Origin: a virus
Taxonomy: Duplodnaviria > Caudoviricetes
Length of the DNA: 64,000 nt
IMG/VR virus record: IMGVR_UViG_3300025392_000002
Strand: one strand, 5' to 3'
Shown here one piece after another: positions 9,013 through 28,050 of the stretch (positions are counted from its first letter, which is position 1; each line of letters opens with the position of its first letter). The notes below the pieces were generated by a model that made no database searches, was not told where the DNA came from, and saw only the letters and a list, made by a program, of their open reading frames with translations. Made by a program: the position numbers and the translations under genes.

Positions 9013-9032
9013 AAATTTTGGAGAAATAAAAA

Positions 9033-9395: not shown

Positions 9396-9416
9396 TAATT
9401 AAAGAGAGATTAAAAT

Positions 9417-10181
9417 ATGGCACGTTACAATACCCAACTGGCGCAAGGCACACAAAGTTCTGGTACCAACCCTATTACAACACCTGCGTCAGGTCAGCTA
9501 ACAGAGTTTACTGGCGCCGCGCCATATACTATCACTATTCCTGATCCAACAATTTATCAAGGCGTAACACAAAGTTTTTATAACAATACTAGCAATGCTG
9601 GTAGTGTTACACTACAAACACCTACTGGACAATTTATTGGGCCAGGCGGAACTGCAAGTAACCAGTATGTATTACCCACACAAACTACTGTTACACTAGC
9701 ATCCGATGGTGCTAACTATATTCTTCAATCGCAAAACGGTGGAAACTTAGTTGCAACTACAAGTACATTTGGCGGTCTAGCAACATTTACTAACAGTATA
9801 CAAGTTAACGGTACGTATGTAAGAGCTAGTATCGCATTTACACCAAGTGCTACATACGACTTAACAACATTAACTTATATTCAAACAGTTTACGGACAAA
9901 CTTGGAGTGTACAAGGTTCTAGTTTTACAGCAACAGCTGGCGGACGTTATTTCTGCTCAGGCGGTATTACTGTAACATTACCAGCAAGTCCAAACGTAGG
10001 CGATATGGTTCAAATTGTCGACTATAACGGAAACTTTAACTCAAGTAACGTAACTGTTAATCCGCAAAGTAATAAAATTATGCGTCAAGCGACGACCATG
10101 ACTGTCTCAACAGCAGGTGCCGCATTTACGCTTGTATATTCTGGCTCAACAAACGGCTGGTTAATGGCTAACGGTATTTAA
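9417..10181 (+). CDS. Tail-fibre-associated structural protein
   Basis: C-terminal ITVTLPASPNVGDMVQIVD...FTLVYSGSTNGW module, common in phage fibre proteins. Confidence 0.65.
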   Translation: MARYNTQLAQGTQSSGTNPITTPASGQLTEFTGAAPYTITIPDPTIYQGVTQSFYNNTSNAGSVTLQTPTGQFIGPGGTASNQYVLPTQTTVTLASDGANYILQSQNGGNLVATTSTFGGLATFTNSIQVNGTYVRASIAFTPSATYDLTTLTYIQTVYGQTWSVQGSSFTATAGGRYFCSGGITVTLPASPNVGDMVQIVDYNGNFNSSNVTVNPQSNKIMRQATTMTVSTAGAAFTLVYSGSTNGWLMANGI

Positions 10182-12799: not shown

Positions 12800-12812
12800 T
12801 ACGGAGTTTAGA

Positions 12813-13355
12813 ATGAAGAAAGCACTAATGGGGTTTCAAGGTTATATACATGAAATTAAAGATCCCGGAGAAGATTATCAAATTTATGAAGGACCAGATG
12901 CTACAATGATGTGGGTCGATGCTCCTGACGATATTACCATCAACTGGACATTAGAATATAGTCCACGATACGCATGTATGGTATGGGTAGAACGTCCTAG
13001 ACCGTTTACCAACTTAGAAGTTGCTAGAAAAGTGGGCTATGGTGATGTTGGCGAACAATTAGGTATGTTGTTCGACGATTTAAAAGCAAACGGTACACTC
13101 AGCGCAGAAACTAGTTCATGGTTTGAACACGTATCTTATATTAAAAGTGTAATTCCTAAGCCACCACTAGTAGAAGAACCTAAACATTTAGAAGAGTTAT
13201 TAGTAGAATGGGCCACTAGAGAACCGACTATTTCTAAAGAATGCAAAATGTCTACACCTGAGCAACAAAGTTGGCTACGTTATCCTGGCTGGAAGAACTA
13301 TAATCCAGAAGCAGGTATGCCACCAAAAGATAGCATTATTAGAATTACAGAGTAA
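12813..13355 (+). CDS. Putative tail-fibre assembly chaperone-like protein
   Basis: RKVGYGDVGEQLGMLF...WFEHVSYIKSVIPKP resembles the R...Y....EQL..L...W...I..IK...PK motif of small proteins following fibre genes; GGAG RBS. Confidence 0.5.
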   Translation: MKKALMGFQGYIHEIKDPGEDYQIYEGPDATMMWVDAPDDITINWTLEYSPRYACMVWVERPRPFTNLEVARKVGYGDVGEQLGMLFDDLKANGTLSAETSSWFEHVSYIKSVIPKPPLVEEPKHLEELLVEWATREPTISKECKMSTPEQQSWLRYPGWKNYNPEAGMPPKDSIIRITE

Positions 13356-13369
13356 TTTTATCTAATAAT

Positions 13370-13393
13370 AAACCGGCCATCTAGGCCGGTTTT
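13370..13393 (+). terminator. Rho-independent terminator ending the fibre module
   Basis: AAACCGGCC-ATCTA-GGCCGGTTTT hairpin with a short T tract. Confidence 0.75.
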
Positions 13394-13418
13394 CACGACT
13401 AACGTATCTATTGACGGC

Positions 13419-13424
13419 TAAGTA
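13419..13424 (+). promoter_or_regulatory. Putative late promoter (TAAGTA variant) for the plus-strand halogenase/oxygenase arm
   Basis: CTAAGTA lies 23 nt before the ATG at 13448 (GAGGT RBS). The same variant precedes the small terminase (37314). Confidence 0.45.
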
Positions 13425-13447
13425 CTACTACAAATCTCAGAGGTAAT

Positions 13448-15085
13448 ATGGATAATTTTGAATACAAAAAAGTAGTAATAGTCGGTGGTGGAAGTTCAGG
13501 TTGGATGACGGCAGCCGCTCTATCTAAACTATGCCCACACTTGGAAATCACCTTAATTGAATCTAAAAAAATTGGAACTGTAGGTGTCGGCGAGTCTACA
13601 CTAGGCCATATCAATCGGTATTTAAACTTATTAGGTTTAAAAGATGAAGATTGGATGAAAGCCTGCAATGCTACGTATAAAAATTCAATCAGATTTACCA
13701 ACTTTAGAGAAAACAAAGGCGAATCCTTTGAATATCCATTTATTAACGGATATGATTTAACAGATAAACATAATGGATTGCAATCATGGGGTGAAGTTGC
13801 AACTATGTACCCAGACGATTATCCACCTGAAACTTTTTCAGAATTTTATGCGCCAGTTAATACACTACTAGCAAAGTATAATAAAGAAACTAAAAATGAA
13901 AACGGAGAATTCCGCCATTATGATTTCCCTACAAATACTGCTTATCACATGGATGCGGGTTTGTTTGGAGAATGGTTAAAAAATAATATAGCACTACCTA
14001 ATGGTGTAAAACAAGAATTCGGTGAATTGCATTCTTTTAGAAAAGATCCTAAAGGGAATCTTTCTCAAGTACTAACAACAGATGGAAGAACTTTCAATGG
14101 AGATCTATGGATTGACTGTACTGGCTTTAGAAGTTTGTTACTAGAAGAATGGATGGGATCATTTTTTATTCCGTTTGAAAATCAATTAGCCAATGATATG
14201 GCATGGGCATGTAGAATTCCTTACATTGATAGAGATAAGGAAATGCACAATGTTACAGATTGCCATGCATTAAACAATGGCTGGGTTTGGAATATTCCTT
14301 TATGGAATCGTATTGGTACTGGATATGTGTTTTCTTCAAGATTCTGTACACCACAAGAAGCTCAGAAAGAGTTCAGAGCTCATCTAGCTAAGAGCGATCC
14401 TAAACGTGCCGAAGAAGCAGAAATGTTCCAAGTTAAAATTAGACACGGTTATAGACATCGTGCTTGGAAAATGAATGTAGTAGGTGTTGGGTTAAGTTAT
14501 GGGTTTGTTGAACCATTAGAATCTACTGGATTACTAACAACACATGAAAATATTATAAGACTAGTTGATGTATTAAATCGTCGCAATGGATATGTTACTA
14601 GTGTGGAAAAAGAAGCATATAATCTAGCCGCACAATTAGAAGTTACCGGTTTCAGGGACTTTGTAGCATGTCATTATGCATTATCAAAGAGAACTGATAC
14701 TCCTTACTGGCGTTGGTATACACAAATTAATGATTTGTTTCCTTTGCAGTTTAACGATTTTATCCCAGCAATGCATACTGCATCAAATGCAATAGCGGCA
14801 TTAGCTAGTAATCATTATAACGAAAGTACTCAAGGGTTGTCATTTATCATGGCCGGCATGGGTATTAAAAATATATCAACACCCGCACTAGTGACAAGTA
14901 CAATCAGCAGTACTGGTACATCTGCACCAATAAGATTAACTGTAGATAAAATGGATGCAATTAATGATACTAAACGTAAACACGAACAATATATAGAGTG
15001 GCTTACAGAACGTATTAAAGAATTACCAAGTCACTATGAATATTTGAGAGACAATATTTACGGCGGTACAGATGAACATCTGTAA
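13448..15085 (+). CDS. Flavin-dependent halogenase (tryptophan halogenase family)
   Basis: GGGSSG FAD motif, GVGESTL, catalytic-Lys motif ATYKNSIRF, WVWNIP, FVEPLESTG. Confidence 0.9.
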   Translation: MDNFEYKKVVIVGGGSSGWMTAAALSKLCPHLEITLIESKKIGTVGVGESTLGHINRYLNLLGLKDEDWMKACNATYKNSIRFTNFRENKGESFEYPFINGYDLTDKHNGLQSWGEVATMYPDDYPPETFSEFYAPVNTLLAKYNKETKNENGEFRHYDFPTNTAYHMDAGLFGEWLKNNIALPNGVKQEFGELHSFRKDPKGNLSQVLTTDGRTFNGDLWIDCTGFRSLLLEEWMGSFFIPFENQLANDMAWACRIPYIDRDKEMHNVTDCHALNNGWVWNIPLWNRIGTGYVFSSRFCTPQEAQKEFRAHLAKSDPKRAEEAEMFQVKIRHGYRHRAWKMNVVGVGLSYGFVEPLESTGLLTTHENIIRLVDVLNRRNGYVTSVEKEAYNLAAQLEVTGFRDFVACHYALSKRTDTPYWRWYTQINDLFPLQFNDFIPAMHTASNAIAALASNHYNESTQGLSFIMAGMGIKNISTPALVTSTISSTGTSAPIRLTVDKMDAINDTKRKHEQYIEWLTERIKELPSHYEYLRDNIYGGTDEHL

Positions 15086-15848
15086 ATGGTTGTTTGGTAA
15101 AAAAGAAAAAAGCTGGATTAGGTTCTACAGTATGGAGCCTGGTGTTCCAGAAATTTTCCCTATACGACCTTCTTCTGAAATAAAACGAAATTGGATGGAT
15201 GTACAACAAGATCCAGATCCTGATAACGGGCCAATGTATACAAAAAATTGTCCTGGCATTAAGAAATTAGTAAATTCAGGGTGGGTACTTACTGCTCCTG
15301 CTGATTTTATAATTGCCACTAATGGAGATAAAACTACATTTCGTTGGAGAGAATCAAGGAAGTTTAATAGAGGAACGCCAGGTTGGGAAAACTATGTAGG
15401 ATTTCATAATCAGCATCAAACAGAGTTAACTTTAGATGATCCTGAAAAAAGTTTAAAGACTGTAGTTAAGTTGGATACTCCATGGCGCATCGCCGCCTCA
15501 GACGACATGATGTTATTACAACTGCCTGTCAGCTATAATAACGAGTCAAGATTTACTGCGGCTACCGGAGTGTTTGATCCACGGTTTGGCCATGTAGTAA
15601 ATGTACAACTGTATTGGCATGTATTTGAAGGTGAAACTTTAATTAAAGCAGGAACTCCTTTAGTACAGTATTTGCCAATACGCAGGGATTATTTAAATAT
15701 TAGCAATCATATTGTTACTATTGACACTGCTACCGAACAAGATTTGCTAACTGAACGTAAGTTTAATTATGCAACAAATTGTACTTTTATAACACATGAT
15801 AATATTGGCTCACGACTACGTAGAGCAGTAAAATCTTTAGCTAAGTAA
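15072..15848 (+). CDS. Hypothetical protein, possibly degenerate dUTPase-like beta fold
   Basis: TKNCPG...TPW...TLIKAGTPLVQYLP resembles a family that accompanies phage oxygenase clusters; canonical dUTPase motifs are incomplete. Confidence 0.45.
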   Translation: MNICKWLFGKKEKSWIRFYSMEPGVPEIFPIRPSSEIKRNWMDVQQDPDPDNGPMYTKNCPGIKKLVNSGWVLTAPADFIIATNGDKTTFRWRESRKFNRGTPGWENYVGFHNQHQTELTLDDPEKSLKTVVKLDTPWRIAASDDMMLLQLPVSYNNESRFTAATGVFDPRFGHVVNVQLYWHVFEGETLIKAGTPLVQYLPIRRDYLNISNHIVTIDTATEQDLLTERKFNYATNCTFITHDNIGSRLRRAVKSLAK

Positions 15849-15864
15849 TTCACAGGAGAATTAA

Positions 15865-16122
15865 ATGGAATATATCGACCACCTAAATCAATCTATTGAG
15901 AATGTTCAATCAGAATTGACTCGAGTTAAAGAAGAACTAGCAGTCCTAGAAAAAGATTTTGGCGATGTTAAACTTAATCCGTACGGAGTAACTAACATTG
16001 ATTTCAGCAAAAGACAAGAACTTATGAGCGATGCCTTAAAAATGGAAGGCGCAATAATGGGCCTAAATTTAGCTAAGGAAGCGTTTACCGGAGTAGCACC
16101 GGATGCAGTGGCCACACCTTAA
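15865..16122 (+). CDS. Hypothetical coiled-coil protein
   Basis: Strong AGGAGA RBS; helical heptad pattern. Confidence 0.6.
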   Translation: MEYIDHLNQSIENVQSELTRVKEELAVLEKDFGDVKLNPYGVTNIDFSKRQELMSDALKMEGAIMGLNLAKEAFTGVAPDAVATP

Positions 16123-16705
16123 TGTAGTGCGTGATGGGCAGATGGCTGACCCATTTCCAAATTTAATTTGGAAATATCATTACGAGTTTGATTGGGATAA
16201 ACTAAAAGATAAAGTTTATAATCACATACAAAGCACTTCATGCTCGACATCGTTAGAGTTAGGCGATTCTCAATCTTCTATAGGTGCCGCTTATGAAGAC
16301 AGAGTTATCAATTGGCCAGAAATGCAGGATTTTCTCAAGTGGTTAGAACCTGTTTTTGAATTTCAGTGGCGTCATCACGGATATGTATACCAAGAAAAAC
16401 GTATTGGAGAAGTATGGTTTAATCGTCACGGCTTTGGAGGCCAAACACTTGAACACCATCACAACGGTATAGGACTAGTTCTTACTGCATACTTACAATT
16501 ACCTCCCGGGAGTGGATTCATCGAATTCCGAGATCCTTTAGAATATCACAAAGCCAACAGTCCTATTATTCCTGAAAATTTGTTATGGAAGTCTGTAGAA
16601 TGTGAGACAAATGATATTCTTATTTTTCCTGGATGGTTAAAACATCGAACACAGCCTAGTAACTCTAATGAAGACCGTGTTGTTATGACTATGAATATAA
16701 GATGA
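16103..16705 (+). CDS. Putative 2OG-Fe(II) oxygenase (TIGR02466-like)
   Basis: WFN...EHHH...YLQLP...IFPGWLKHRT...RVVMTMN. Confidence 0.8.
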   Translation: MQWPHLNVVRDGQMADPFPNLIWKYHYEFDWDKLKDKVYNHIQSTSCSTSLELGDSQSSIGAAYEDRVINWPEMQDFLKWLEPVFEFQWRHHGYVYQEKRIGEVWFNRHGFGGQTLEHHHNGIGLVLTAYLQLPPGSGFIEFRDPLEYHKANSPIIPENLLWKSVECETNDILIFPGWLKHRTQPSNSNEDRVVMTMNIR

Positions 16706-17478
16706 ACTTTGTAACATGCTATCCAGATGCAAACTCGTTTAAAGATATTATACATGTCAAATCATTAGAAGATTGGCATGTTGAATATGTACCTTTAACA
16801 GATACTACAGGTTATTGGGTTGGAGATAATCCATTTTACGATAACGGATTTGACTTGTATAGAGATCTAGTTGCTATGTTTCCTATAGTATCTTCTAACA
16901 ATGACAAATATTGCTGGGATGCAAATCCTTTTGCTACAATACATCTACCAAGTTGGGCAAGCGAGTCTATTGCTGTACTAATAAAAGAATTTTATTTAAA
17001 AAATATTAGCCCGTACGGCAGTAATAGTCAAATAAACGAATGGGGAAATTTATATCGCAATGATGCCAAGCCGTTAAAAGCCTATCAGATTCCGCATATA
17101 GATTATCAAGCAGGTTTTATTGGAAATTTATGGTTCAGTAGCCACGAACCAGGTACTACTGGTACTAACATTTATGAATACACTGGAAAATATATAGATT
17201 CAGCTTATGATTTCCAAGTAGATACTAACCACCCGTTGCATGAAGAATATAAGTCTAGTCTTTATAGATTGGATAAATGGGAAAATTTTTCTGAAGAAGA
17301 CGCAGAGCACTGGGGATTTAAAAAACTTGGATTTGCTCCGTGCGTTGAAGGCAAGATGACCATGTATAAAGCTAACCAACCACATTGCCCTTGGCTTGAT
17401 AATAGTGTAAAATTTAGATGGTCTCACTCATATGCATTTCATTATGAGCCAATTAGAATGAGCAATTTAATAAAATGA
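16702..17478 (+). CDS. Putative 2OG-Fe(II) oxygenase-like protein (DUF6445-like)
   Basis: PHID HxD motif, GT.IY, distal PH and R.S. Confidence 0.65.
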   Translation: MNFVTCYPDANSFKDIIHVKSLEDWHVEYVPLTDTTGYWVGDNPFYDNGFDLYRDLVAMFPIVSSNNDKYCWDANPFATIHLPSWASESIAVLIKEFYLKNISPYGSNSQINEWGNLYRNDAKPLKAYQIPHIDYQAGFIGNLWFSSHEPGTTGTNIYEYTGKYIDSAYDFQVDTNHPLHEEYKSSLYRLDKWENFSEEDAEHWGFKKLGFAPCVEGKMTMYKANQPHCPWLDNSVKFRWSHSYAFHYEPIRMSNLIK

Positions 17479-18068
17479 ACTTAGATGTATATTTTCCAAC
17501 TCCAGTTTGGTGGGAAGATCTCACCATTAACAACACTGAAATTTTAGATTTCTGCCATGAAATGCAGATCAAAAATCCTACTGGTCGACGTATTAGCAAT
17601 GTCGGCGGCTGGCAATCTGACGATATTGGGCCAGACGAATACCCTGAACTAAAATCTTTAGTAGATGCCATTTATGAAAAAACTAAATTTTGTTTAGAGA
17701 CTTACGGATTTGCACCAGAGTCGGTTAATATGACTATTGGAAATTTATGGATTAATATTAATAAAGAGTCAGATAGTAATGCTGTGCATACACATACCAG
17801 TGCTTTTTTATCCGGAGTCTACTACGTAAAGGCTAGTCGAAATAGTGCTCCTATTGTATTTTATAAAAATTTTGCAGAAGATGCAATAATTACATCAATT
17901 GCGCCAGTTGCAACATTTACACAGCTAAGTGGTTCTACTGCAAAGTATCCGCCTCGAGCTGGCCGCCTAGTTATGTTCCCAGCATGGTTACCGCATAGTG
18001 TATTGCCTAATCCAGTAGACGAAGAACGTATATCTATTGCATTCAATATAAAGATGAAACAATGTTAG
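17475..18068 (+). CDS. Putative 2OG-Fe(II) oxygenase (TIGR02466-like)
   Basis: FPTPVW, SNVGGWQS, WININ...HTH...LSGVYYV, FPAWLPHSV, RISIAFN. Confidence 0.85.
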   Translation: MNLDVYFPTPVWWEDLTINNTEILDFCHEMQIKNPTGRRISNVGGWQSDDIGPDEYPELKSLVDAIYEKTKFCLETYGFAPESVNMTIGNLWININKESDSNAVHTHTSAFLSGVYYVKASRNSAPIVFYKNFAEDAIITSIAPVATFTQLSGSTAKYPPRAGRLVMFPAWLPHSVLPNPVDEERISIAFNIKMKQC

Positions 18069-18781
18069 AAACTCTTGGCCAACAATTACTGAATGGTATA
18101 AATTTTGACTACGATGATCGTGCTGGATTTTTTCCAGGTTTAATTGCTAATCCTGAAAAATTCTTAACATGGAAAGATGTCGAAGAATGTGTTAACCGTC
18201 CAGAGTTATGGGAATTTGAAATAATTGATAGCAATAATAATAAAATTGATATTCCAGTTAGTACAAAAATGTGGAAGTATTCTGGAACTGTACAAGACAA
18301 ATCTTTATTAGCTAGGTATATTAATCAAGGTTGCACAGCAGTAATTACTAATTACGGATTTAAGAATGAATGGACCAATGAACTATTAAAAGTATTTGAA
18401 AATATTTTTAATGTTCATGCGGCTATACACGTATACTGCGGTTTACAAGGTAGTAAAAGTTTTACTATACACGACGACTATCCTGCAAACTTTATTATAC
18501 AAGTTGAAGGGGAAACACGATGGAAAATATTTAAAAATCGTATATCCTATTTGTATAAAACCGGAAGAATGAATGGTAAGTTAACTGATGATATGTTAGA
18601 TGTAGATATTGATGTAGTGCTTAAACCTGGAGATGTGTTGTATATTCCAGCAAGAGCATATCATGTAGCATATCCTGATCAAAAAAGATTATCTATGAGT
18701 ATTCCTTGTTGGAACAAACTGTCTACAGATGTACCGTCATTAGCTATTGATAGAAATACCTACAGGATTAATTATGAATGA
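18062..18781 (+). CDS. JmjC/cupin-4 (ROXA/YcfD-like) oxygenase
   Basis: SFTIHDD...FIIQVEGETRW...LKPGDVLYIPARAYH...RLSMS. Confidence 0.85.
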   Translation: MLETLGQQLLNGINFDYDDRAGFFPGLIANPEKFLTWKDVEECVNRPELWEFEIIDSNNNKIDIPVSTKMWKYSGTVQDKSLLARYINQGCTAVITNYGFKNEWTNELLKVFENIFNVHAAIHVYCGLQGSKSFTIHDDYPANFIIQVEGETRWKIFKNRISYLYKTGRMNGKLTDDMLDVDIDVVLKPGDVLYIPARAYHVAYPDQKRLSMSIPCWNKLSTDVPSLAIDRNTYRINYE

Positions 18782-19361
18782 AACGTATATAGTTTTACGT
18801 AATGCAATTAATCCTGATCTTTGCAAGTTTATAAAAACAGAAGTTACCCTTATTGAAAATGTTATAAATTATCAGGGTAGAAATACTCGCATAGAAAAAG
18901 GTCAAGAAGAATCTTTTGGAGTATATGGATTATTTTGCTTTGAATCCTTGTCTTTACATTTAAAATCTTTAGTAGAGGAAAGTACAGGTAAACAATTATT
19001 CCCAACATATACATACGGACGGGTGTATAGAACTGGTGCAAAATTAGAAAAGCACATTGATAGACGAAGTAGCGAATACACAGTTTCTTGTTGTATAGAA
19101 AAAGACCCAGTTGATTGGCTATTAGCTGTAGAAGATAGTACAGGAGTAGTATCCAAAATTTTATTAGAACAGGGCGATATATTAATATATAAAGGTAGTA
19201 CACATTATCATTGGCGAGAAGGTGCATTTTCTGGTAAAGAACAACTACAAATATTCTTGCAGTATGTAGATGTTCATGGTAGCAACACAGATTTAAAATA
19301 CGATAAACGACCAATGTTAGGTTTACCCGTATCACAGGAGTTTTTAAATGAAGCCAATTGA
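18774..19361 (+). CDS. Putative 2OG-Fe(II) oxygenase
   Basis: PTYTYGRVY...LEKHIDR.S.EY...GD..IY.G...HWRE...QIFLQY. ATG 18774 is preferred over TTG 18747. Confidence 0.8.
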   Translation: MNETYIVLRNAINPDLCKFIKTEVTLIENVINYQGRNTRIEKGQEESFGVYGLFCFESLSLHLKSLVEESTGKQLFPTYTYGRVYRTGAKLEKHIDRRSSEYTVSCCIEKDPVDWLLAVEDSTGVVSKILLEQGDILIYKGSTHYHWREGAFSGKEQLQIFLQYVDVHGSNTDLKYDKRPMLGLPVSQEFLNEAN

Positions 19362-19920
19362 AATAGAAAATGTTATTGATAAAGAATATCAACAAAAAAT
19401 ATATGACACTGTAACTAGTATAGACTTCCCATGGCATTATATGGAAGATACTACATTTGAAGTTAAACAAACAAAATACGACACTACGCCGGCCTTTGGT
19501 CATCTATTATTTTCTAATCAAACAAAAAGCGAATATCTCGATGTGTTTACACCATTGATGCTAACGGCTATTGAAAAATGTGGATTAAAACTTATTAGTC
19601 CGTTAAGATTACGTCTTGGGTTTTTATTGAACACAATATATCCGTTACCAAGTATTGGATACAAACATAATACACCGCATGTAGACGCTTCGGTAGATCA
19701 TTATACTATATGCTACTATGTTAACTCATCTGATGGCGCCACAATGATTTTTAATCAACAGGAAGAGTCAGAAAAATATACATTATTACACAAAGTTGAA
19801 CCTCGACAGGGTAAAATTGTATGTTTTGATGGTAAGAATTATCATGCAAGTACTTGTCCTAAAATGCATTCTAGCCGAATAGTGCTTACTATTAATTTTA
19901 CTGCTGAAAAAAATGCATAA
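19348..19920 (+). CDS. Putative 2OG-Fe(II) oxygenase
   Basis: FPWHY, PHVD, YYVNSSDG.T, FDG..YHAS..P, RIVL.IN. Confidence 0.8.
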   Translation: MKPIEIENVIDKEYQQKIYDTVTSIDFPWHYMEDTTFEVKQTKYDTTPAFGHLLFSNQTKSEYLDVFTPLMLTAIEKCGLKLISPLRLRLGFLLNTIYPLPSIGYKHNTPHVDASVDHYTICYYVNSSDGATMIFNQQEESEKYTLLHKVEPRQGKIVCFDGKNYHASTCPKMHSSRIVLTINFTAEKNA

Positions 19921-20554
19921 TAGAAAAAACAGATTGTATTATCCATTCATCCCTACAATCGTAGTTGATGATTTTTTTGAAACTCCAGAGATGATCAGGA
20001 GTTTTGCACTGTCTCAGGATTTTTTTAAAGGGGATCGTGGATATTGGCCTGGAGTTCGAAGTAAGATGCTAGATGAAACTAGTACAGAATTGTTTAATTT
20101 GATGCAATATAATATATTAAATTGTTTGCCACAATTTAAAAAATTTGAAAAGTTTGAAAGTACCTTTCATCTTTGTAATGAGAGCTATGTAAGAGGCTGG
20201 GTACATGATGATGCACCCGATGTTAATGTTGCAGGGTTTGTATATCTATCTCCTAATCCTCCATTAAATACTGGAACTACATTTTTTGAAGATTCTATTG
20301 AACAAATGATGTCGCAGTATTTAGAGCCTTTTATGGACGATGTTTCAAGGATGCCCGATGAACCTCCTAGATTAGAATACAGCAAGTATAGAGATGAACA
20401 AATAAGCTGGTTTAAAAAATCGTTAAGTATTGACAATATGTTTAATCGTGCTATAATATTTGATCCGCGTACTTGGCATGCCGCAGATAATTTTTTTGGA
20501 ACTACTAAAGAAGATTCCAGATTAACTATTGTATTTTTTGGGAGAGCAGTATGA
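19913..20554 (+). CDS. Putative 2OG-Fe(II) oxygenase (DUF6445-like)
   Basis: VDDFF...WPGVRS...GWVHDD...YL...GT...FNRAIIFD...WH...RL. Confidence 0.75.
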   Translation: MHNRKNRLYYPFIPTIVVDDFFETPEMIRSFALSQDFFKGDRGYWPGVRSKMLDETSTELFNLMQYNILNCLPQFKKFEKFESTFHLCNESYVRGWVHDDAPDVNVAGFVYLSPNPPLNTGTTFFEDSIEQMMSQYLEPFMDDVSRMPDEPPRLEYSKYRDEQISWFKKSLSIDNMFNRAIIFDPRTWHAADNFFGTTKEDSRLTIVFFGRAV

Positions 20555-21261
20555 CAACTTTATCAGATATAAAAGACATTGATCAACGTGCTCAAGTAAG
20601 TGCTGGCTTAATTAAAAACCATGACCTTAAAAACAGGAAAAAATTTCCATTTATTCCAACAAGAATAGTTGATAATTTTTTTGAAGCTCCTATGGGTTGG
20701 CGGGCATTTGCCTTAGACCAGTCCTACGAAAGAAGCGATACTGGTACTTGGCCGGGTGTTAGATCGAAGTCGTTAGATCAACTTGATCCTGATATGTTTG
20801 AAATATTTGCTAAAAAACTATTACAAGTTCTTCCAGAATTTGTCGGTTTTCGAGAATTAGGAATTAATTTTCATCTTATAGACGAAACTTTTGATAAAGG
20901 ATGGGTTCATGACGATGATCCTACATTGAATGTCGTAGGAGTTGTTTACTTGAATAAAAATGCACCTCCAGATTCAGGCACGACATTGTATTGTGACCAG
21001 TACGATTTAGACGCCGATCGTTATAGATCTTTATTTAAACAAGATGTACTCAGTATTGATCCCGAAGAAAGAAAAAAACTAACGTATGCAAGAGACGATC
21101 AGAGAAGCAAATACAGACCAAGTATGGTGGTTGAAAATGTTTTTAATCGATGCGTAATTTATGACCCACGTACTTGGCATAGCCCTAATAAATTTTTTGG
21201 TAAAACAAAAGAAGATTCGCGTCTTAATATTGTATTTTTTGCACAAGGTGTACGTAAATGA
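20551..21261 (+). CDS. Putative 2OG-Fe(II) oxygenase (DUF6445-like), tandem paralogue of the previous gene
   Basis: Shares FIPT, WPGVRSK, GWVHDD, DPRTWH and FFG.TKEDSRL.IVFF with 19913..20554. Confidence 0.75.
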   Translation: MTTLSDIKDIDQRAQVSAGLIKNHDLKNRKKFPFIPTRIVDNFFEAPMGWRAFALDQSYERSDTGTWPGVRSKSLDQLDPDMFEIFAKKLLQVLPEFVGFRELGINFHLIDETFDKGWVHDDDPTLNVVGVVYLNKNAPPDSGTTLYCDQYDLDADRYRSLFKQDVLSIDPEERKKLTYARDDQRSKYRPSMVVENVFNRCVIYDPRTWHSPNKFFGKTKEDSRLNIVFFAQGVRK

Positions 21262-21875
21262 ATTTAAGATTTGCTAATTTTTCTAACTTCGGATTTGTTA
21301 GAGATACAGTTCCTAGCGATGTACTTTTATCTTTAAAATCAGAAATTGACTGCATCGATTTAGATAAAACTAATACTATTTCAGGACAATTAGCAGGAAA
21401 TATTGAAAAACAATTTGAACTATCAAGTAGTAATGCGGCACTAGAACCTTATGTATTATATCTTTGCCGAGAATATCTCAATACATTTAATCCTGCACAT
21501 ACGTTTCAATTTTCTCAAATAAAAAACTTAAAATTAAATGCATCATGGGTAAATTTTCAAAAGAAGAATGAATTCAATCCTATACATACACATGACGGCA
21601 TGTTTAGTTTTGTAATATGGATTAAAATTCCTTATTCTATAGATTCAGAAATATCTCAACCCCATGTTGTTAATTCTAATATGCGACGTGCAGGTATGTT
21701 TTCTTTTATGTATACAAATGTATTCGGAGAAATTAGAGAATCTGTGCAGGCAATTGATAGTTCATTTGAAGGTGAAATATTTTTATTTCCTGCATCTTTT
21801 ATGCATCAAGTATATCCGTTCACTACTTCAGACGACTACAGAATTTCTATATCAGGAAATATTATAAATGGATGA
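21258..21875 (+). CDS. Putative 2OG-Fe(II) oxygenase
   Basis: LAGNIE, WVNFQKKNEFNPIHTHDG.FSFVIW, FPA...HQVYPF, RISISGN. Confidence 0.85.
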   Translation: MNLRFANFSNFGFVRDTVPSDVLLSLKSEIDCIDLDKTNTISGQLAGNIEKQFELSSSNAALEPYVLYLCREYLNTFNPAHTFQFSQIKNLKLNASWVNFQKKNEFNPIHTHDGMFSFVIWIKIPYSIDSEISQPHVVNSNMRRAGMFSFMYTNVFGEIRESVQAIDSSFEGEIFLFPASFMHQVYPFTTSDDYRISISGNIING

Positions 21876-22467
21876 TATCATCATAATTGAAAATGTAATT
21901 TCTAAAGATTACCAGAATCATATATTGTCACATGCATCAAGTTTAAAGTTTCCATGGTATTTCAATCCCAACATGGTTAGTGAGCATGATCCAGTTGCAA
22001 ACGATCCTAAAAATGTTATGGGATTTAATCATTTTTTATACGAAGAAGGCAAACCAGTTAGTCCATTCTTTGACTCGGTATATCCTTTAATACTATCTAT
22101 TACTGGAAAAACAAATGTACAATTTCAACAGTTAGAGCGTATGCGATTTAATTTAACTTTTAAGAATACATCGAGCACAGAAAACTGGCACTTGCCACAT
22201 ATTGACACCGCTCATCCGCATTTGGTTGCAATTTATTACGTGAACGATAGTGATGGCGATACTGTTATTTTTAATGAAACTAACGACTCATACAAACCAA
22301 AAGATTTTGATAAAATGAAATCTGAGGACTTCACAGTCAAGGCACGGATAACTCCTAAACAAGGAAAAATGGTAATTTTTCCAGGACAATATTATCATGC
22401 ATCATCATATCCAAGAAATTCTAAATACAGAATGGTGATTAATTCAAATTTAGGAAACATTCTCTAA
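21868..22467 (+). CDS. Putative 2OG-Fe(II) oxygenase (paralogue of 19348..19920)
   Basis: FPWY, PHID, YYVNDSDGDT, YHASS.P, RMVIN. Confidence 0.8.
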   Translation: MDDIIIIENVISKDYQNHILSHASSLKFPWYFNPNMVSEHDPVANDPKNVMGFNHFLYEEGKPVSPFFDSVYPLILSITGKTNVQFQQLERMRFNLTFKNTSSTENWHLPHIDTAHPHLVAIYYVNDSDGDTVIFNETNDSYKPKDFDKMKSEDFTVKARITPKQGKMVIFPGQYYHASSYPRNSKYRMVINSNLGNIL

Positions 22468-22991
22468 TGCAAGATTACATGGTTTATAAATCTCAATTGA
22501 TTATAGATAATCAACCACAAATTATCTATGAGCTAGAACGAGCACATTATCACTTTACAAAAAACTTTCATAAAATGGATCCTACTTGGGGCTATGCATT
22601 TTATAACATATTTGCTATTACTAGTCCTAGTCCGTTGTTTTATGATATACTGCAAGAAATGAAACAACAAGTTCGTGAATTCACGGGCATCAAAGGTCCT
22701 ATGTGGTTTCAGTCATGGCTTAACTATCATAAACCTGACGAAGTTTTAGACTGGCACGATCATCAATGGCCGTGGCACGGTTATTTTAGTATTGATCCTA
22801 AAAATACAAAAACAGTATTTGAAGGTTATGAAATTCTTAATGAAGTGGGTAATGTATATATTGGCCCAGGATTTAGAAAGCATAAGGTTGAGGTACTAGA
22901 ATCGTACGAAACCCCAAGAATTACCCTGGGGTTTGATATTGAAACACGCCCTAATTTATGCTATGAGCAGTTTTCGTTAATACCGTTTTAA
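22467..22991 (+). CDS. Putative 2OG-Fe(II)/cupin oxygenase-like protein
   Basis: SWLNYH...LDWHDH...HGY...HKV...RITLGFD. Confidence 0.65.
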   Translation: MQDYMVYKSQLIIDNQPQIIYELERAHYHFTKNFHKMDPTWGYAFYNIFAITSPSPLFYDILQEMKQQVREFTGIKGPMWFQSWLNYHKPDEVLDWHDHQWPWHGYFSIDPKNTKTVFEGYEILNEVGNVYIGPGFRKHKVEVLESYETPRITLGFDIETRPNLCYEQFSLIPF

Positions 22992-23281
22992 TAAGGTACA
23001 TCGATTGGTGGAATTGTACCAGCTGGATGTGCCGCAAATCTAGGATCTTGATAGTACGGCGGAGGTAAAACTGGCTCCCAATCTGTAGTATTTTCTTCCT
23101 CATTAGTCTGCATGGCCCATATAGTAGCTTTTTTCTTAGCTTGTGCAAGGCTATCAATATGTGGGCGATTATGATAATTAGGATGTGCTGGATCTTCAGC
23201 ATGTTCTGGGTGTGCATGTGGTAGCTCCCAGTCCCTAATTTCTTCGGTTTTAGTGTTTTTTATTTGAACATGAAATGGCAT
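22988..23281 (-). CDS. Small His/Pro-rich hypothetical protein
   Basis: Has its own TAAATA box (23308-23313, minus) and AGGAG RBS; HAHPEHAEDPAHPNYHNRPH segment. Confidence 0.7.
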   Translation of the reverse strand: MPFHVQIKNTKTEEIRDWELPHAHPEHAEDPAHPNYHNRPHIDSLAQAKKKATIWAMQTNEEENTTDWEPVLPPPYYQDPRFAAHPAGTIPPIDVPY

Positions 23282-23313
23282 TTTTTACTCCTAACGGATT
23301 GATACGTTATTTA

Positions 23314-23979
23314 TCAATGATATTGCTTAGATCTTGGAACTGGAGTGTACTGGGCGATTACATTTTTAATGAAAAATACTTGCGATAATCTAAACCCTTC
23401 CCCTGTTTCAAAATTATCTGCTTTGTGATACGATTCTCCATCGTACGCAATCATACGATTATACTTGTTGGTGAACCTTATAGTTTCTGAGAATTTGCTA
23501 TTGTGGTTAGAAATTGTCTGATCGTATAAGTCTGGATCTACAGTTTCTCCCTTAAAAAACGCATGTTTAACGCTACTAACGTCTTCTAAAATAGCATCCT
23601 TTTTTAACTCATAAATCGAAGTTCCGCTTGATGGATCAGGATTGTCATTTAAATAAATTATACCAGCAAATACTGTGTTATCGTCGGCATGAATCCACCC
23701 TGTATTTCTATACTTGGCAGTACCAGGCATTGGATAAATCTTTTGAAAATACGACGATACTTCCCATGTGATTGGCGCATTTGTCAAGTCATAAAACATA
23801 GAGAACAAGCGTTTGCAAGTCATCGATAACATTTTTACGTTTGTAGTATGTATAGCCGCACGTAGTCCAGGGTAGCTACCTTCAGGACAAGCTACATAAT
23901 CCAATTGAGATGCATACTTTTGCATTTGATCTGGATCATCGTAAAAGTTATCTACACAAATTGCTGGAAAATTTATCAT
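23314..23979 (-). CDS. Putative 2OG-Fe(II) oxygenase (DUF6445-like)
   Basis: VDNFYDDPD, YPGLR, GWIHAD, AGIIYL, GTSIY, YNR..AYD...YH, RLSQVFF. Confidence 0.75.
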   Translation of the reverse strand: MINFPAICVDNFYDDPDQMQKYASQLDYVACPEGSYPGLRAAIHTTNVKMLSMTCKRLFSMFYDLTNAPITWEVSSYFQKIYPMPGTAKYRNTGWIHADDNTVFAGIIYLNDNPDPSSGTSIYELKKDAILEDVSSVKHAFFKGETVDPDLYDQTISNHNSKFSETIRFTNKYNRMIAYDGESYHKADNFETGEGFRLSQVFFIKNVIAQYTPVPRSKQYH

Positions 23980-24004
23980 AAGTTTGTATCCTCTGTAGTA
24001 GTTA

Positions 24005-24637
24005 TCATATTTCTAAAGACTGTAGAAAATAATTAGATATTGGTCCTTTGATAAAAGTATTAAAAGATAGCGAAATTCTGTTTGTATTACTGTTATTCTT
24101 TGATACTTTGTGTTCTAAACTACTTGGAAATAGAAGTAGGCTATGCTGTTTTGGAATTAATATCCAATGCTTTGAATTATAAATGTTACTGTTTACAGTA
24201 GTATATTCTATCTGCTGATATTGGCTATTTGAAAATATAAGATTTCCCGAGTCAGCATCAACATTGAAATAGTATACTCCGCTGATTATAGAGTTTGCAT
24301 GACGATGCCTGTGATGCTCCTGCCCCGGCTCGGTTTTGTTTAACCAACTTTCTGTAATATATATTTCAATATCAGGCTCAGCCTGCATTACTCCATAAAA
24401 ATATTGTTTTAATTCTGCTTGTATCAAAGAATAGAACCGAGTTTCTTTGACAGAATCTAACCAACGATTATCTTTACTTACATTATTATTATGATTGCTA
24501 GCCCATTCGACATTATCTCCGGACACCATAGTATCTAACGACATCAATTCTTCTGCTGTTTGTTGTACACCAAGATTATTAACATATACCGGAGAGCTAA
24601 AAAGTGGAATAATTTCGTGGCCAAAATTTATGTTCAT
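24005..24637 (-). CDS. Putative 2OG-Fe(II) oxygenase (TIGR02466-like)
   Basis: LFSSPVY, ESWLN, HRHANSIISGVYY, FPSSLEHKV, RISLSFN. The start is probably ATG 24637, just after the halogenase stop. Confidence 0.85.
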   Translation of the reverse strand: MNINFGHEIIPLFSSPVYVNNLGVQQTAEELMSLDTMVSGDNVEWASNHNNNVSKDNRWLDSVKETRFYSLIQAELKQYFYGVMQAEPDIEIYITESWLNKTEPGQEHHRHRHANSIISGVYYFNVDADSGNLIFSNSQYQQIEYTTVNSNIYNSKHWILIPKQHSLLLFPSSLEHKVSKNNSNTNRISLSFNTFIKGPISNYFLQSLEI

Positions 24638-24638
24638 T

Positions 24639-26123
24639 TTATTTCCATTCTTTGGGTGCATTTATCATCACATTCAATGCTTCTCTGTGGGTTACAGTAT
24701 CATCAATATTTTTATAATAGCCTTCATCAAATGCTAGATCTTGTATAGATTTTTGTGTCAGATGATTGAAATTTTCTTGATATAGTGCTTTGATTTTTTC
24801 TGTGTTGAACATTTGTAAACCGTGCATAACCTGTGCAAAATTTAATCCTCTAAACATTAATAATGGAGACGATGAAAAATAAGTGTCATTAACAAAATTA
24901 TTTTTAAAGACGTCTATATATTCTTTGTTAAAATCTGTCATTTTAATATTATGTTTACACCACTTCCAAAATTCTGTATCTTCTCGAGTAGTGAAATAGT
25001 GAAGTTGTATAAAATCTATAATATTTGTTACAATAAGATTTGCAGACTCGTTATACTTTTTGACAGTAGTTTGATTTTCTCTACTCCATAACCCTAAAAA
25101 CGGTCCTAGCATTCTCACTAATTGTATAGTACTACCAATACTAGATGCTTCCAATGGCTCAACAAACATACTAGCTAGACCAACAGTTACACAATTTTTG
25201 ATCCAGCATTTATCTACATACCCTGCCGAGAATTTAATTTTCTTTCCTATACTAATCGTTTCTTCAAACTCTGATTGTACTTCATCGAAAGCTTCTGTTT
25301 CATTGATAAATGCATCACAGAATACATAACCGTTTCCAAATCTTTCTTGAGTAGGAATACGCCATCTCCATCCAGAACTCATAGCTTTTGCCAATGTATA
25401 TAATGGTAGAGACTCTTGGTATCCTGTAGGAAATGCTATAGCACTATTCATAGGTAGTTGTTCAGAACAATCTATCCACTTGGCTCCAAGTTTTGAAATA
25501 ATAATTCTATTAAATCCTGTAGAATCTATATAAAAATCATGTTCATAGACATTACCAGTAGCTCCAGTCAAACTTGATACAAACCCGTGGTCATCTAAAT
25601 TAACATCTATTATCTCGTCATCTATAATAGTGATATTTCTTTCTTTGCACAGTTTGTGGAAATAGTTGTTAAGTTTATTTGTATCAAAATGATACTGGCT
25701 AAAAGTTTCTAATATAGGATCTCTTAGTATCGATTTGATCCATGTGGGCCATAGTGTTTCTAAAGGATCAGCATTTTCTGATATTAATCTCATCATAGTA
25801 TACGGTATTGCAGTATACGGATCGTGTATACTGTATTTTTCAGATAGACTATGGAAATAAGTTTTACCGTCACTGCGCCATCCGTCAAACTTGATACCAG
25901 ATTTAAGTGTAGCACCGCATTCTCTTATTAGATCAAATCTTGAGATACCTACAGCTTGCATAAAGGTTGCCCAATGTTCTGTTGAACCTTCGCCGACTCC
26001 GATAATACCTATTTTACTTGATTCAATTATTGTTATTTCAGTATTTGGATGTGCTTTTTGTAAGTATAATGCAGATATTAATCCTGCTGTGCCTCCTCCG
26101 GCAATACATAATTTTTTTATCAT
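24639..26123 (-). CDS. Flavin-dependent halogenase (tryptophan halogenase family), second copy
   Basis: AGGGTAG, GVGEGST, ATLKSGIKF (catalytic Lys), WRWRIP, FVEPLEASS. Confidence 0.9.
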   Translation of the reverse strand: MIKKLCIAGGGTAGLISALYLQKAHPNTEITIIESSKIGIIGVGEGSTEHWATFMQAVGISRFDLIRECGATLKSGIKFDGWRSDGKTYFHSLSEKYSIHDPYTAIPYTMMRLISENADPLETLWPTWIKSILRDPILETFSQYHFDTNKLNNYFHKLCKERNITIIDDEIIDVNLDDHGFVSSLTGATGNVYEHDFYIDSTGFNRIIISKLGAKWIDCSEQLPMNSAIAFPTGYQESLPLYTLAKAMSSGWRWRIPTQERFGNGYVFCDAFINETEAFDEVQSEFEETISIGKKIKFSAGYVDKCWIKNCVTVGLASMFVEPLEASSIGSTIQLVRMLGPFLGLWSRENQTTVKKYNESANLIVTNIIDFIQLHYFTTREDTEFWKWCKHNIKMTDFNKEYIDVFKNNFVNDTYFSSSPLLMFRGLNFAQVMHGLQMFNTEKIKALYQENFNHLTQKSIQDLAFDEGYYKNIDDTVTHREALNVMINAPKEWK

Positions 26124-26569
26124 ATTAAATCTACTAAATCAAATACGGTCTGGAGTTTTGTGCGGATAGTTTTTGAGCTAAAACTATTACGTAAACCTTG
26201 ATGTAACGGTTTAGGAGCACGATCTATAGTGGACCATGCCCAACCCATATGTTCGTCGCTTAAGACTGGAACAAATTCTGTGTCTATTACACACAAGTAT
26301 GTGTGGAAATTAAACACTTTGTCGTTGGACACAAATGTTTCCAAGGGAATTGTTTTTATAATATTGGGTAAACTACCAATTTCTTCAGTAATTTCACGTT
26401 GCAAACCCTGCCAAGGAGTTTCGCCTACTATGTTAGTACCGCCAACTAGACCCCATGTACCTTCATGCTTGCCTTGTGTTTTTTGTAATAGCAGGAAACG
26501 TCGCGTAGATTTAGCGTAGAACAATGCTCCGCTACATACAATACGATCTGTTACAAGTCTATTCTCCAT
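26120..26569 (-). CDS. NUDIX hydrolase
   Basis: Nudix box GTNIVGETPWQGLQREITEEIG. Confidence 0.9.
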   Translation of the reverse strand: MENRLVTDRIVCSGALFYAKSTRRFLLLQKTQGKHEGTWGLVGGTNIVGETPWQGLQREITEEIGSLPNIIKTIPLETFVSNDKVFNFHTYLCVIDTEFVPVLSDEHMGWAWSTIDRAPKPLHQGLRNSFSSKTIRTKLQTVFDLVDLI

Positions 26570-28050
26570 TGGCCCACGTCATAAAAACCTTCGAAGCTCT
26601 TGTTCCATGAAACACCGTTCCACAAATACTGAACTCCTGTATATATATTCGTTTGCCATACCATAGAGCTTGAATGTTGGCTAGCTGTAAACACTATTCT
26701 CCAAGCAGTACCACTCCACTCTATAATATCATTTGCATGGGCTACAAAATCTGTACCGGTAGTACTTTGCCATGCTTTTGCACCTGCACTTGCACTATTA
26801 GTTGTGCTACCTATATCTTCTATGATTAGTAGTCGTGTACCTACTGCAACAGGTTGGTCAGATTGTTCTTTACCTGTTGGACGTTTTGGATTATAAGTTG
26901 CAGGATCTACAATAGCATCGAATGTTCCTGGACTATTTGGTCTACTGCTAGTACCAGCATTATATCCGTAGTCTGAATCTAGTTTTCCAGTACTGTCAAT
27001 GCCTGTGTTTGTAACTAGTGTATCTGGATTCCAGTTAACACGCAATATCGTAGGATCGAATGAATCTAATGCAATAGTTCCAATAACTATTGCCCCGTTT
27101 GATTGTGTTAGATATATTTGACTTGATCCTGCAATATATTTTCCAGGATATGCATCAAACACTATATTCCAATCAATTGGCGTTCCTATCCGTGTGGGTG
27201 AAATATCTAGTGTAGGCTCTCGAGGATTCGTAGTGCCACCGGGCCCTAGTAGGTATGCCTTACCACCGTATACTTCTATCTTATAATTAGTAATTGTTGT
27301 TACATCAGTACTAACAAGGTCACTCATTGTCGTAGTTCCGGCAATAGGGTCCATGCCTAAACCTTCTATATAAGTTCCGCTAGTAGTATTAGCACCATAA
27401 AGACTAGTAATAATTTTTGTAATAACACCCAAGTGTTTGACTTTAACCGGAGGGTTAATCCAAATTGGAGTTTCTACTTCTAAAGTAGCAATGTCAATTG
27501 GAGTATCGTTACCTACAGGAACTTGTTTACTACTCCAAGTAATGTTTGATAAATTCAATACAGTTAAACTGGTCCAGTCTAAGTAATTGTCAGATGTTTG
27601 TAATTCTAATGTTGGATTAAACAATACTAAAATTTGTTCAAGTATTTGCAATTTTTGTTCGCTACTGCTAGACCAAATATCCACTTTCATTTTTAACTGA
27701 AAAGGTGTTGGCATCAGTCTTTCAACCATGTAGTTTTTACCTTGCCCAGTAGTATAAGTTCCAGAATCGATATCGCGTTCACGGATTTGTACTTTATCAA
27801 CAAATGTTTGATCGGCTAGACGATCTTTGTCCATACTCAAACCGTTGACATACACACTGATACGTGGCACACTATTAACTTTGTTTTCACTATTGTTACG
27901 TATGATGCTAGCAACTTGACGATCTGCATCTCCATACATGACAGGTACGCGAACTAGTGTTCCATCACCGTACTTGACTGCAAAGTTACTAAACACACGA
28001 ATAGTTTGTATGATGTAACGTCTTATTTGTCCGTCGTAAAAAAATTGCAT
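26551..28050 (-). CDS. Tail terminator / sheath stabiliser (T4 gp15-like) with a C-terminal extension
   Basis: FFYDGQIRRY...VRVPVMYG...PRIS...P.PF...QILEQILVLFNP; neck-gene context. Confidence 0.75.
   Translation of the reverse strand: MQFFYDGQIRRYIIQTIRVFSNFAVKYGDGTLVRVPVMYGDADRQVASIIRNNSENKVNSVPRISVYVNGLSMDKDRLADQTFVDKVQIRERDIDSGTYTTGQGKNYMVERLMPTPFQLKMKVDIWSSSSEQKLQILEQILVLFNPTLELQTSDNYLDWTSLTVLNLSNITWSSKQVPVGNDTPIDIATLEVETPIWINPPVKVKHLGVITKIITSLYGANTTSGTYIEGLGMDPIAGTTTMSDLVSTDVTTITNYKIEVYGGKAYLLGPGGTTNPREPTLDISPTRIGTPIDWNIVFDAYPGKYIAGSSQIYLTQSNGAIVIGTIALDSFDPTILRVNWNPDTLVTNTGIDSTGKLDSDYGYNAGTSSRPNSPGTFDAIVDPATYNPKRPTGKEQSDQPVAVGTRLLIIEDIGSTTNSASAGAKAWQSTTGTDFVAHANDIIEWSGTAWRIVFTASQHSSSMVWQTNIYTGVQYLWNGVSWNKSFEGFYDVGQWRIDL

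Follow-up and report, generated by a model that had tools for sequence, protein, structure and literature searches.

The DNA analysed here, which we call the window, is a 64,000-nucleotide (nt) stretch from a virus of the Caudoviricetes (Duplodnaviria; IMG/VR record IMGVR_UViG_3300025392_000002), and at positions 13,448 to 26,123 it carries two flavin-dependent halogenase genes that bracket 13 oxygenase-like genes. On our reading of the sequence, this locus is a jumbo-phage form of the dioxygenase/halogenase cluster known from phage Syn9 and makes up one module with the genes that precede it, which encode Gly/His-rich fibre tips and a gp40-like protein. The enzyme cluster itself was described in 2010, when Iyer, Abhiman, de Souza and Aravind reported Syn9 gp41-gp54, including a dUTPase-fold protein, and read it as synthesis of a halogenated secondary metabolite (PMC2938197). 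What is new here is the linkage to the tip and gp40-like genes, a coupling that Iyer et al. did not remark.

We searched 50,697 cultured-phage records and found the tip in 18, the gp40-like gene in 20 (about ten Kyanoviridae species from several genera) and the dUTPase-fold gene in 15. Every record with a tip or gp40-like gene had a halogenase of the VirX1 lineage 0.1-3.5 kilobases (kb) downstream on the same strand. S-SZBM1 shows the same arrangement, its tip match surfacing solely with the low-complexity filter off. For metagenomes we retrieved 79 IMG/VR loci by tip similarity alone; a gp40-like gene and a halogenase were present in all of those that extend at least 2.5 kb downstream (67/67). 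The dUTPase-fold gene occurred in 62 of these 67, and the other five extend just 3-4 kb past the last tip gene. The order was fixed throughout: tip (one to three copies), gp40-like gene, halogenase (one or two copies), dUTPase-fold gene, a gene for 85 amino acids (aa), and oxygenases. The same block was found on two unrelated backbones, that of T4-like cyanomyoviruses and that of the window's jumbo clade. The dependence is one-way: tip and gp40-like genes never occurred without the enzymes, while the converse is untrue. Two relatives (G005 and G007) carry islands without a Gly-rich tip, their halogenases abutting a triplet of short C1q-like tips, and three island-less loci (L048, L025 and L054) have long fibre genes with neither short tips beside the NUDIX gene nor an island. 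Counting only loci where the island end is reached, the number of oxygenases was 2-6 beside a single tip (n = 8), 9 beside two (n = 2) and 6 beside three (n = 2), these being related rows. Absence of genomic linkage to fibre genes in relatives had been named beforehand as a ground for abandoning the reading; we found the linkage in both cultured phages and IMG/VR.

The window itself belongs to a different kind of phage from Syn9. Its gp15 has an extension of ~250 aa, and the best full-length matches are in the jumbo phages Phosso, PA5oct and Atu_ph07, where a NUDIX gene adjoins as well; by sequence, the backbone is that of a jumbo phage and not of a cyanomyovirus. Relatives of this gp15 are encoded in 510 IMG/VR stretches, and we fetched 80 gp15-related loci for neighbourhood comparison. 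The region after the NUDIX gene was variable, with an island in about a quarter of the 80 loci and none in many that have 10 kb of flank. One relative of 26 kb, G001, reproduces the whole architecture: the small fibre-array genes f1 and f2, three tips and a gp40-like gene stand with a VirX1-like halogenase, genes for the dUTPase-fold and 85-aa proteins, and eleven oxygenases, the order being almost unchanged. These genes converge on three halogenases behind NUDIX (37-60% identity). Using tblastn, the window's plus arm mapped gene for gene onto Syn9 gp40-gp54 and S-CREM1 ORF68-80. The window genes find their best matches in this Syn9/Syn10-type cluster, at 32-55% identity to Syn9 and 38-61% to S-CREM1, and the two share halogenase(s), a dUTPase-fold protein with a conserved Cys, a small open reading frame (ORF) and ~10 tandem dioxygenases including a JmjC protein of the MINA/NO66 clade, in nearly the same order. 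They differ in that the window island sits on a jumbo backbone between the fibre array and gp15-NUDIX, holds 13 oxygenases as against 10, and has two convergent arms, the second with a halogenase outside the VirX1 lineage and two more oxygenases.

The initial annotation had described two intact-looking flavin-dependent halogenases, and the profile searches agree: the two proteins score 349.5 and 340.8 bits against PF04820 (cut-off 21), the match covers the whole catalytic domain, and all catalytic motifs are in place. In halogenase 1 these are GxGxxG (G13-G18), the catalytic K78, WxWxIP (W279-P284) and FVEPLE at 353; in halogenase 2 they are GxGxxG (G9-G14), K74, WxWxIP (W252-P257) and FVEPLE at 320. 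The catalytic lysine of this family is K79 in PrnA and VirX1. Among 28 orthologues of halogenase 1, K78, W279-P284 and E355/E358 are invariant. Halogenase 1 aligns end to end with VirX1 of Syn10 (PDB 6qgm; residues 7-541 on chain residues 5-530, E 9e-179) and shares its downstream dUTPase-fold neighbour, although about half of its residues differ. Halogenase 2 matches VirX1 at E 6e-37 and represents a separate lineage, with homologues 3' of NUDIX in L003, L027 and G001. In a quick halogenase tree, sequences from loci with and without the jumbo-type f1 gene group apart with a few switches; the tree has a midpoint root and one very long branch and supports no direction of transfer. The initial annotation had seen no flavin reductase, and no flavin reductase family was matched among the ORFs from 9033 to 29573, the part of the window scanned for one; reduced flavin could come from a host reductase. 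In two island-less relatives, a flavoprotein of ~400 aa lies directly after NUDIX at the end of the fibre array (L064, 11852-13063, and L082, 11867-13069, both on the minus strand), with a weak likeness to the halogenase family (about 78 bits, 21% identity).

The 13 oxygenase-like genes of several subfamilies that the initial annotation listed were all recovered, 11 of them plus-strand and 2 minus-strand, and all have an invariant metal site, HxD or HxH followed by H and R, when compared among the window, G001, S-CREM1 and Syn9. The first motif is HxD in eight genes and HxH in five (Table 1). Ten of the 13 match Pfam or NCBIfam families (PF13759/TIGR02466, DUF6445 in three copies, JmjC_2 and 2OG-FeII_Oxy_3); the other three (oxygenases 2, 5 and 11) were assigned by PHROG matches and motifs, and their orthologues are annotated as oxygenases in S-CREM1 and by Iyer et al. 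Sequence searches of the PDB with two of these three gave no match. PF13759 places four of the five HxH genes in the Fe(II)/2-oxoglutarate oxygenase superfamily, and the structures closest to the TIGR02466-like HxH genes, 3bvc and 2rg4, are both uncharacterised. In the 12 classical members an invariant Arg follows the distal His by 2-14 residues (10-14 in eleven of them) and presumably binds the C5 carboxylate of 2-oxoglutarate. The paralogues are at most 46% identical, most of them below 32% or mutually undetectable. Each keeps its metal ligands and its own best match in relatives at just 28-59% identity, which argues that they have been retained as distinct enzymes; the sequences indicate old, distinct enzymes. 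The JmjC gene (239 aa) scores 67.6 bits against PF08007 (cut-off 22), with H137, D139 and H201 invariant, and its closest solved structures are NO66 (E 2e-7), MINA53 (3e-4) and YcfD (7e-3), which are protein histidyl/arginyl hydroxylases, NO66 and MINA53 being histidyl. The phage protein is without the C-terminal domains of the cellular enzymes, and its Syn9 orthologue, gp49, was assigned to the MINA/NO66 clade by Iyer et al. 2010 (PMC2938197). Oxygenase 6 has a faint likeness to the FlmC family, at 19.9 bits and far under the cut-off of 240.

The candidate substrates are the three paralogous Gly/His-rich tips (279-290 aa), whose C-terminal domain we modelled and compared with known structures. 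It resembles the fibre of cyanophage Pam3 (7ypx_A; Z 14.3, root-mean-square deviation 3.0, 158 residues aligned, 28% identity; Foldseek E 3e-6) and the Bxb1 tail-tip protein (9d93_Qa; Z 14.0), and on this model the Gly-rich tip is a virion fibre domain of the Pam3-fibre type; a sequence search of the PDB with the tip gave no match. The predicted local distance difference test score (pLDDT) is 78-94 in the core of the model and falls to 33-46 in the His-rich stretch at 231-272, the sole poor part of the C-terminal domain. Eight His are invariant across 38 tip homologues. The gp40-like protein carries the Atlas name 'Gp40 family', and its closest named clusters, XkdW and Caudo_TAP_N at just 0.84-0.86, are leads only; it is possibly a fibre assembly factor. 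In G005 and G007 a triplet of tips of 315-328 aa takes the place of the glycine-rich ones (L177 of G005, 6126-9040, minus strand; L178 of G007, 12721-15624, plus strand). The C-terminal domain of each is C1q-like (FTAPVAGxYxF...), with many Trp, Tyr and His residues, and the triplet is followed by a gene of 217-240 aa that adjoins the halogenases.

Besides the oxygenases, the plus arm contains two genes that the initial annotation left unnamed, those for the dUTPase-fold protein and the 85-aa protein. The AlphaFold2 model of the former (mean pLDDT 92.5) is a dUTPase-type barrel with extra C-terminal helices, and in a PDB-wide structure search the top 11 rows were all dUTPases (Z 7.6-9.4; Foldseek E 3e-4). 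C60, D78, R139 and D169 are invariant. Of the 15 phage records with this gene, 14 have it directly 3' of a halogenase, and in Syn10 it (113251-113997) abuts the halogenase at 113999-115579. We considered an active dUTPase and rejected it, given 8-20% identity, no Pfam match and a helical C-terminus in place of glycine-rich motif 5; as modelled, the product has a dUTPase fold only. G001 has a second dUTPase-fold copy directly after NUDIX and before its three tandem halogenases (L094/L095, 23006-23761, minus strand).

The initial annotation had the locus as apparently expressed late, with the plus arm starting after the fibre terminator behind a TAAGTA box and the minus arm behind a TAAATA box. 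Both boxes are where it placed them: TAAGTA at 13419-13424, ahead of halogenase 1 and 3' of a terminator-like hairpin, and ATAAATA 12 nt before the first gene of the minus arm. In G001 and other relatives, TTATAAATA stands after the same terminator where the window has CTAAGTAC. The motif of the TATAAATA-type late promoter is enriched before gp40-like and halogenase genes in relatives, and the window has the variant form before halogenase 1. ATAAATA stands in the 90 nt upstream of the gp40-like gene in 20 of 44 distinct sequences from relatives; for the halogenase the figure is 11 of 46, for internal island genes the counts were 0/40, 0/40 and 0/23, and the background is 0.014 per 90 nt. Syn9 and S-CREM1 likewise have ATAAATA ahead of the gp40-like gene. 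The motif occurs at 12 places in the window; 8 lie no more than 70 nt ahead of gene starts, including those of the tail-sheath gene, the gp14-position gene and a 97-aa ORF. Contrary to the initial annotation, a sigma-70 promoter sequence is present: a perfect site lies inside oxygenase 7 and a second at 55375-55404 on the plus strand, two in the window where 0.09 would be expected. Late-type motifs do head the block in relatives, but perfect host-type promoters recur inside islands, so that late expression of the island is plausible and is probably not the whole story. At 29585 (minus strand) and at 35509, 39727 and 41339 (plus strand), ATAAATA or TAAATA stands 10-12 nt before starts without a visible Shine-Dalgarno sequence; if these boxes are promoters, that spacing would make the mRNAs nearly leaderless.

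In our view no other single explanation fits the module as well as post-translational tailoring of the tip adhesins, which we hold tentatively, with less than even confidence; its timing, substrate and effect we infer. It is favoured by the one-way dependence of tips on enzymes across two backbones and two tip folds, by late-type motifs common to the island and the fibre module, by the protein-hydroxylase relatives of the oxygenases, by the absence of a match to any scaffold-building enzyme among the ORFs searched, and by the open active site and trimeric state of VirX1. During virion assembly, the halogenases would use host-reduced flavin and halide, alongside about ten orthologously distinct Fe(II) oxygenases that include the MINA/NO66-clade JmjC protein and prolyl-hydroxylase-like enzymes. 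Their joint targets would be side chains of the short receptor-binding tips that the phage itself encodes, most likely His, Trp, Tyr, Asn or Pro of the His-rich loops, with the dUTPase-fold and 85-aa proteins as possible accessory factors, and the modified tips would alter adsorption or stability. Two published observations lend circumstantial support. In the adaptation of S-TIM4 to new hosts, a 2-oxoglutarate oxygenase was among 20 mutated genes, the rest being mostly fibre and baseplate genes (PMC6224464), and a 2-oxoglutarate oxygenase was detected in a virion preparation of S-SCSM2R.

Flavin-dependent halogenases in pathways for ribosomally synthesised and post-translationally modified peptides act on gene-encoded polypeptides and not on free amino acids. 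Unlike such pathways, the locus has no leader peptide, protease or cyclase, its candidate substrate is a folded virion protein of ~285 aa, and its sole small candidate precursor, the 97-aa ORF, is not conserved. Giant-virus collagen hydroxylases are a case of hydroxylases paired with glycine-rich structural proteins. Iyer et al. (2010) described bacterial operons in which collagen-like or tail-collar proteins and 2-oxoglutarate hydroxylases occur together, and these likewise set glycine-rich fibre-type proteins beside predicted modifying hydroxylases. The window island differs from them in having halogenases and neither a sulfotransferase nor a glycosyltransferase, and its tip domain is of the Pam3-fibre/ALK glycine-rich type, not a collagen triple helix.

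Several observations weigh against tip tailoring. The initial annotation had proposed a virion-protein modification line, and the fibre linkage, the protein-hydroxylase families and the late-type motifs speak for that part; hydroxylation or halogenation is not known for any virion protein of these phages. HxH sites bind a structural metal in T4 fibres, and by analogy the invariant His of the tips could be structural metal ligands and not targets. The phage groups of Pam3 and Bxb1, which have the same tip fold, are absent from the 65 halogenase-bearing records, the membership of both phages in the collection being unchecked. 2-Oxoglutarate dependence is less certain for five of the oxygenases because the second ligand lies in HxH and not in HxD/E, and the modelled dUTPase-fold partner hints at binding of a nucleotide or small molecule. 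Linkage in related genomes is non-independent evidence, since a block can be inherited whole without its parts interacting. S-B64 has a lone halogenase among recombination genes, away from fibre genes, and S-SCSM1 has 24 oxygenase genes, numbered ORF1 to ORF251, spread over its genome (PMC9602691). Finally, the coding strand of the tip-island loci contains 17 perfect sigma-70 sites (8 distinct) and the opposite strand has none, the number expected from shuffles being 1.4; such sites inside islands suggest that part of the island may be expressed early. These perfect TTGACA-N16-18-TATAAT sites occur in L104, L107, L124, L127, L132, L140-L152 and L163; some fall within the gp40-like gene, a short way ahead of the halogenase. 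Taken over all sites, the sigma-70 scan shows no enrichment (92 sites versus 82.7 expected), and just the perfect-consensus class stands out.

Other substrates would give the same genes a different meaning. Iyer et al. 2010 (PMC2938197) proposed secondary-metabolite tailoring for the Syn9 cluster from cephamycin-type and bacterial halogenase/JmjC/TonB-receptor analogies: a free amino acid, small peptide or host metabolite would be halogenated and hydroxylated in succession to an organohalogen benefiting cell or phage, and the fibre side would merely be where accessory genes gather. Most characterised flavin-dependent halogenases do take free or carrier-bound small molecules, and in vitro VirX1, a trimer whose active site is unusually large and open, accepts many small heteroaromatics for halogenation (PMC8407142). 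Within the jumbo clade the stretch following NUDIX is a variable hot spot, the low GC content of the island (0.32-0.36 over 14000-26000, versus 0.38-0.44 in flanking structural genes) fits imported genes, and the dUTPase fold points to a small-ligand pocket. What makes this explanation unlikely, if still a serious one, is that a mere insertion hot spot would not yield tip and gp40-like genes that never occur without the enzymes, in the IMG/VR loci and in all cultured-phage records alike, and that island and fibre module have late-promoter motifs in common. Peptide synthetase, polyketide synthase and ATP-grasp gave no Pfam or PHROG match among the ORFs searched, and families for a scaffold-forming enzyme, carrier protein, transporter or resistance also went unmatched there.

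The enzymes might instead serve host take-over, acting on ribosomal proteins or translation factors as RoxA/YcfD do, on the cell envelope, or by a 2-oxoglutarate drain on nitrogen-status signalling; Sullivan et al. 2010 proposed 2-oxoglutarate/NtcA modulation. The JmjC gene falls within the ribosomal-oxygenase clade, many cyanophages bear scattered oxygenases without tips, and host-type promoters inside islands would permit early expression. A 2-oxoglutarate drain, however, needs no set of ~ten distinct oxygenases in near-conserved order plus halogenases, and the strict tip/gp40-like coupling and the late-type motifs would go unexplained, so that we judge host take-over improbable. We give least weight, and very little, to nucleotide or nucleic-acid modification, in which halogenase, dUTPase-fold protein and oxygenases would alter a base or nucleotide bound for phage DNA or RNA. 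Azaindoles, which are purine-like, are good substrates of VirX1, a NUDIX gene adjoins, and on our own motif reading the dUTPase-fold protein keeps Asp, Arg and Gln at places resembling dUTPase motifs 1-4. By our own alignment reading, however, it is without glycine-rich motif 5; the NUDIX gene belongs to the conserved gp15 core, which island-less phages also have; and none of the 13 oxygenases matched the AlkB or TET/JBP families.

Under tip tailoring in its most specific form, ~ten distinct oxygenases and one to four halogenases would place hydroxyl and halogen groups on the receptor-binding tips in a pattern, which we regard as possible but doubtful. If true, this would be the first case in which enzymes halogenate a virus particle, phages could tune or diversify host recognition with the tip sequence unaltered, and enzymatic chemistry on virions would join the routes of phage host adaptation; if it is wrong, the metabolite explanation gains. 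Cyanophage 2-oxoglutarate oxygenases and halogenases have been listed as auxiliary metabolic genes for nearly twenty years, one cyanophage paper stating that the functions of these listed genes were not specifically investigated, and VirX1 is used as a biocatalyst and has no known natural substrate (PMC8407142). The strict, direction-specific coupling to tips makes the substrate question addressable in cultured Syn9, Syn10 and S-CREM1.

The coordinates of these genes, of the promoter-like elements and of the flanking core are collected in Table 1.

Table 1. Features of the halogenase/oxygenase island and its surroundings, by position in the 64,000-nt window.
Feature	Position	Strand	Remarks
Giant fibre-type protein	121-9012	+	2963 aa; heads fibre array; context only; no Pfam match
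f1 and f2	9033-10181	+	Small fibre-array genes, 9033-9395 and 9417-10181
Fibre tip 1	10194-11033	+	Gly/His-rich paralogue; PF21722 Gly_rich_2
Fibre tip 2	11043-11900	+	Gly/His-rich paralogue; PF21722 Gly_rich_2
Fibre tip 3	11927-12799	+	Gly/His-rich paralogue; PF21722 Gly_rich_2
gp40-like protein	12813-13355	+	180 aa; phrog_1787; always between tip and halogenase
Terminator-like hairpin	13370-13393	+	9-bp GC-rich stem and short T-run; 3' of last fibre-module gene
CTAAGTAC box	13418-13425	+	Occupies the place that the TTATAAATA box (T4-type late-promoter motif) has in relatives
Plus arm	13448-22991	+	Halogenase 1, 258-aa protein, 85-aa protein, eleven oxygenase-like genes
Halogenase 1	13448-15085	+	Flavin-dependent; VirX1 orthologue; PF04820 E 4e-104
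dUTPase-fold protein	15072-15848	+	258 aa; Syn9 gp43 family; phrog_7084; start overlaps end of halogenase 1
85-aa protein	15865-16122	+	Syn9 gp44 position; kept in 65 fetched loci
Tandem oxygenases	16103-22991	+	Eleven genes, mostly with overlapping starts
Oxygenase 1	16103-16705	+	HxH...H
Oxygenase 2	16702-17478	+	HxD...H; no Pfam match
Oxygenase 3	17475-18068	+	HxH...H
Oxygenase 4	18062-18781	+	HxD...H; JmjC
Oxygenase 5	18747-19361	+	HxD...H; no Pfam match
Oxygenase 6	19348-19920	+	HxD...H
Oxygenase 7	19913-20554	+	HxD...H
Sigma-70 site	20430-20457	+	Perfect TTGACA-N16-TGnTATAAT, extended -10; inside oxygenase 7, 94 nt before oxygenase 8
Oxygenase 8	20551-21261	+	HxD...H
Oxygenase 9	21258-21875	+	HxH...H
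Oxygenase 10	21868-22467	+	HxD...H
Oxygenase 11	22467-22991	+	HxH...H; no Pfam match
97-aa His/Pro-rich ORF	22988-23281	-	ATAAATA box; not a conserved part of the module
Minus-arm oxygenase	23314-23979	-	HxD...H; DUF6445
Minus-arm oxygenase	24005-24661	-	HxH...H; PF13759/TIGR02466
Halogenase 2	24639-26123	-	Flavin-dependent; non-VirX1 lineage; PF04820 E 2e-101
NUDIX	26120-26569	-	Flanking conserved core, outside island
gp15	26551-28050	-	Tail-sheath stabiliser with jumbo-type C-terminal extension; flanking conserved core
Virion protein at gp14 position	28050-29573	-	Flanking conserved core

The ORFs between 9 and 30 kb form three units, a plus-strand fibre array, the plus arm and the minus arm. 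In G005 and G007, ORFs of 3269-3286 aa occupy the same place ahead of f1/f2 as the giant fibre-type protein of the window, and G001, G005, G007 and many IMG/VR loci have f1/f2 homologues 5' of the tips. The minus arm runs from the gp14-position gene through gp15, NUDIX, halogenase 2 and two oxygenases to the 97-aa ORF; its description as a chain of overlapping genes is accurate, with overlaps of 1, 19, 4 and 23 nt, and the convergent arms have 4 nt in common (22988-22991). The initial annotation had chained gp14, gp15 and NUDIX to the halogenase. We rejected them as members of the system: almost all of the 80 related loci keep this trio, whether they have an island or not. The 97-aa His/Pro ORF, which is preceded by a strong ribosome-binding site and its own ATAAATA box, was rejected as a precursor or chaperone; it had no homologue in the fetched loci, the closest island-bearing relative included, and for that reason is specific to this phage lineage. 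An Rfam scan of 9-30 kb and a megablast search with the island against phage genomes gave no match. Outside the island, amid neck and tail-sheath genes, lies a deoxynucleotide monophosphate kinase gene (PF21448; 30464-31168, plus strand).

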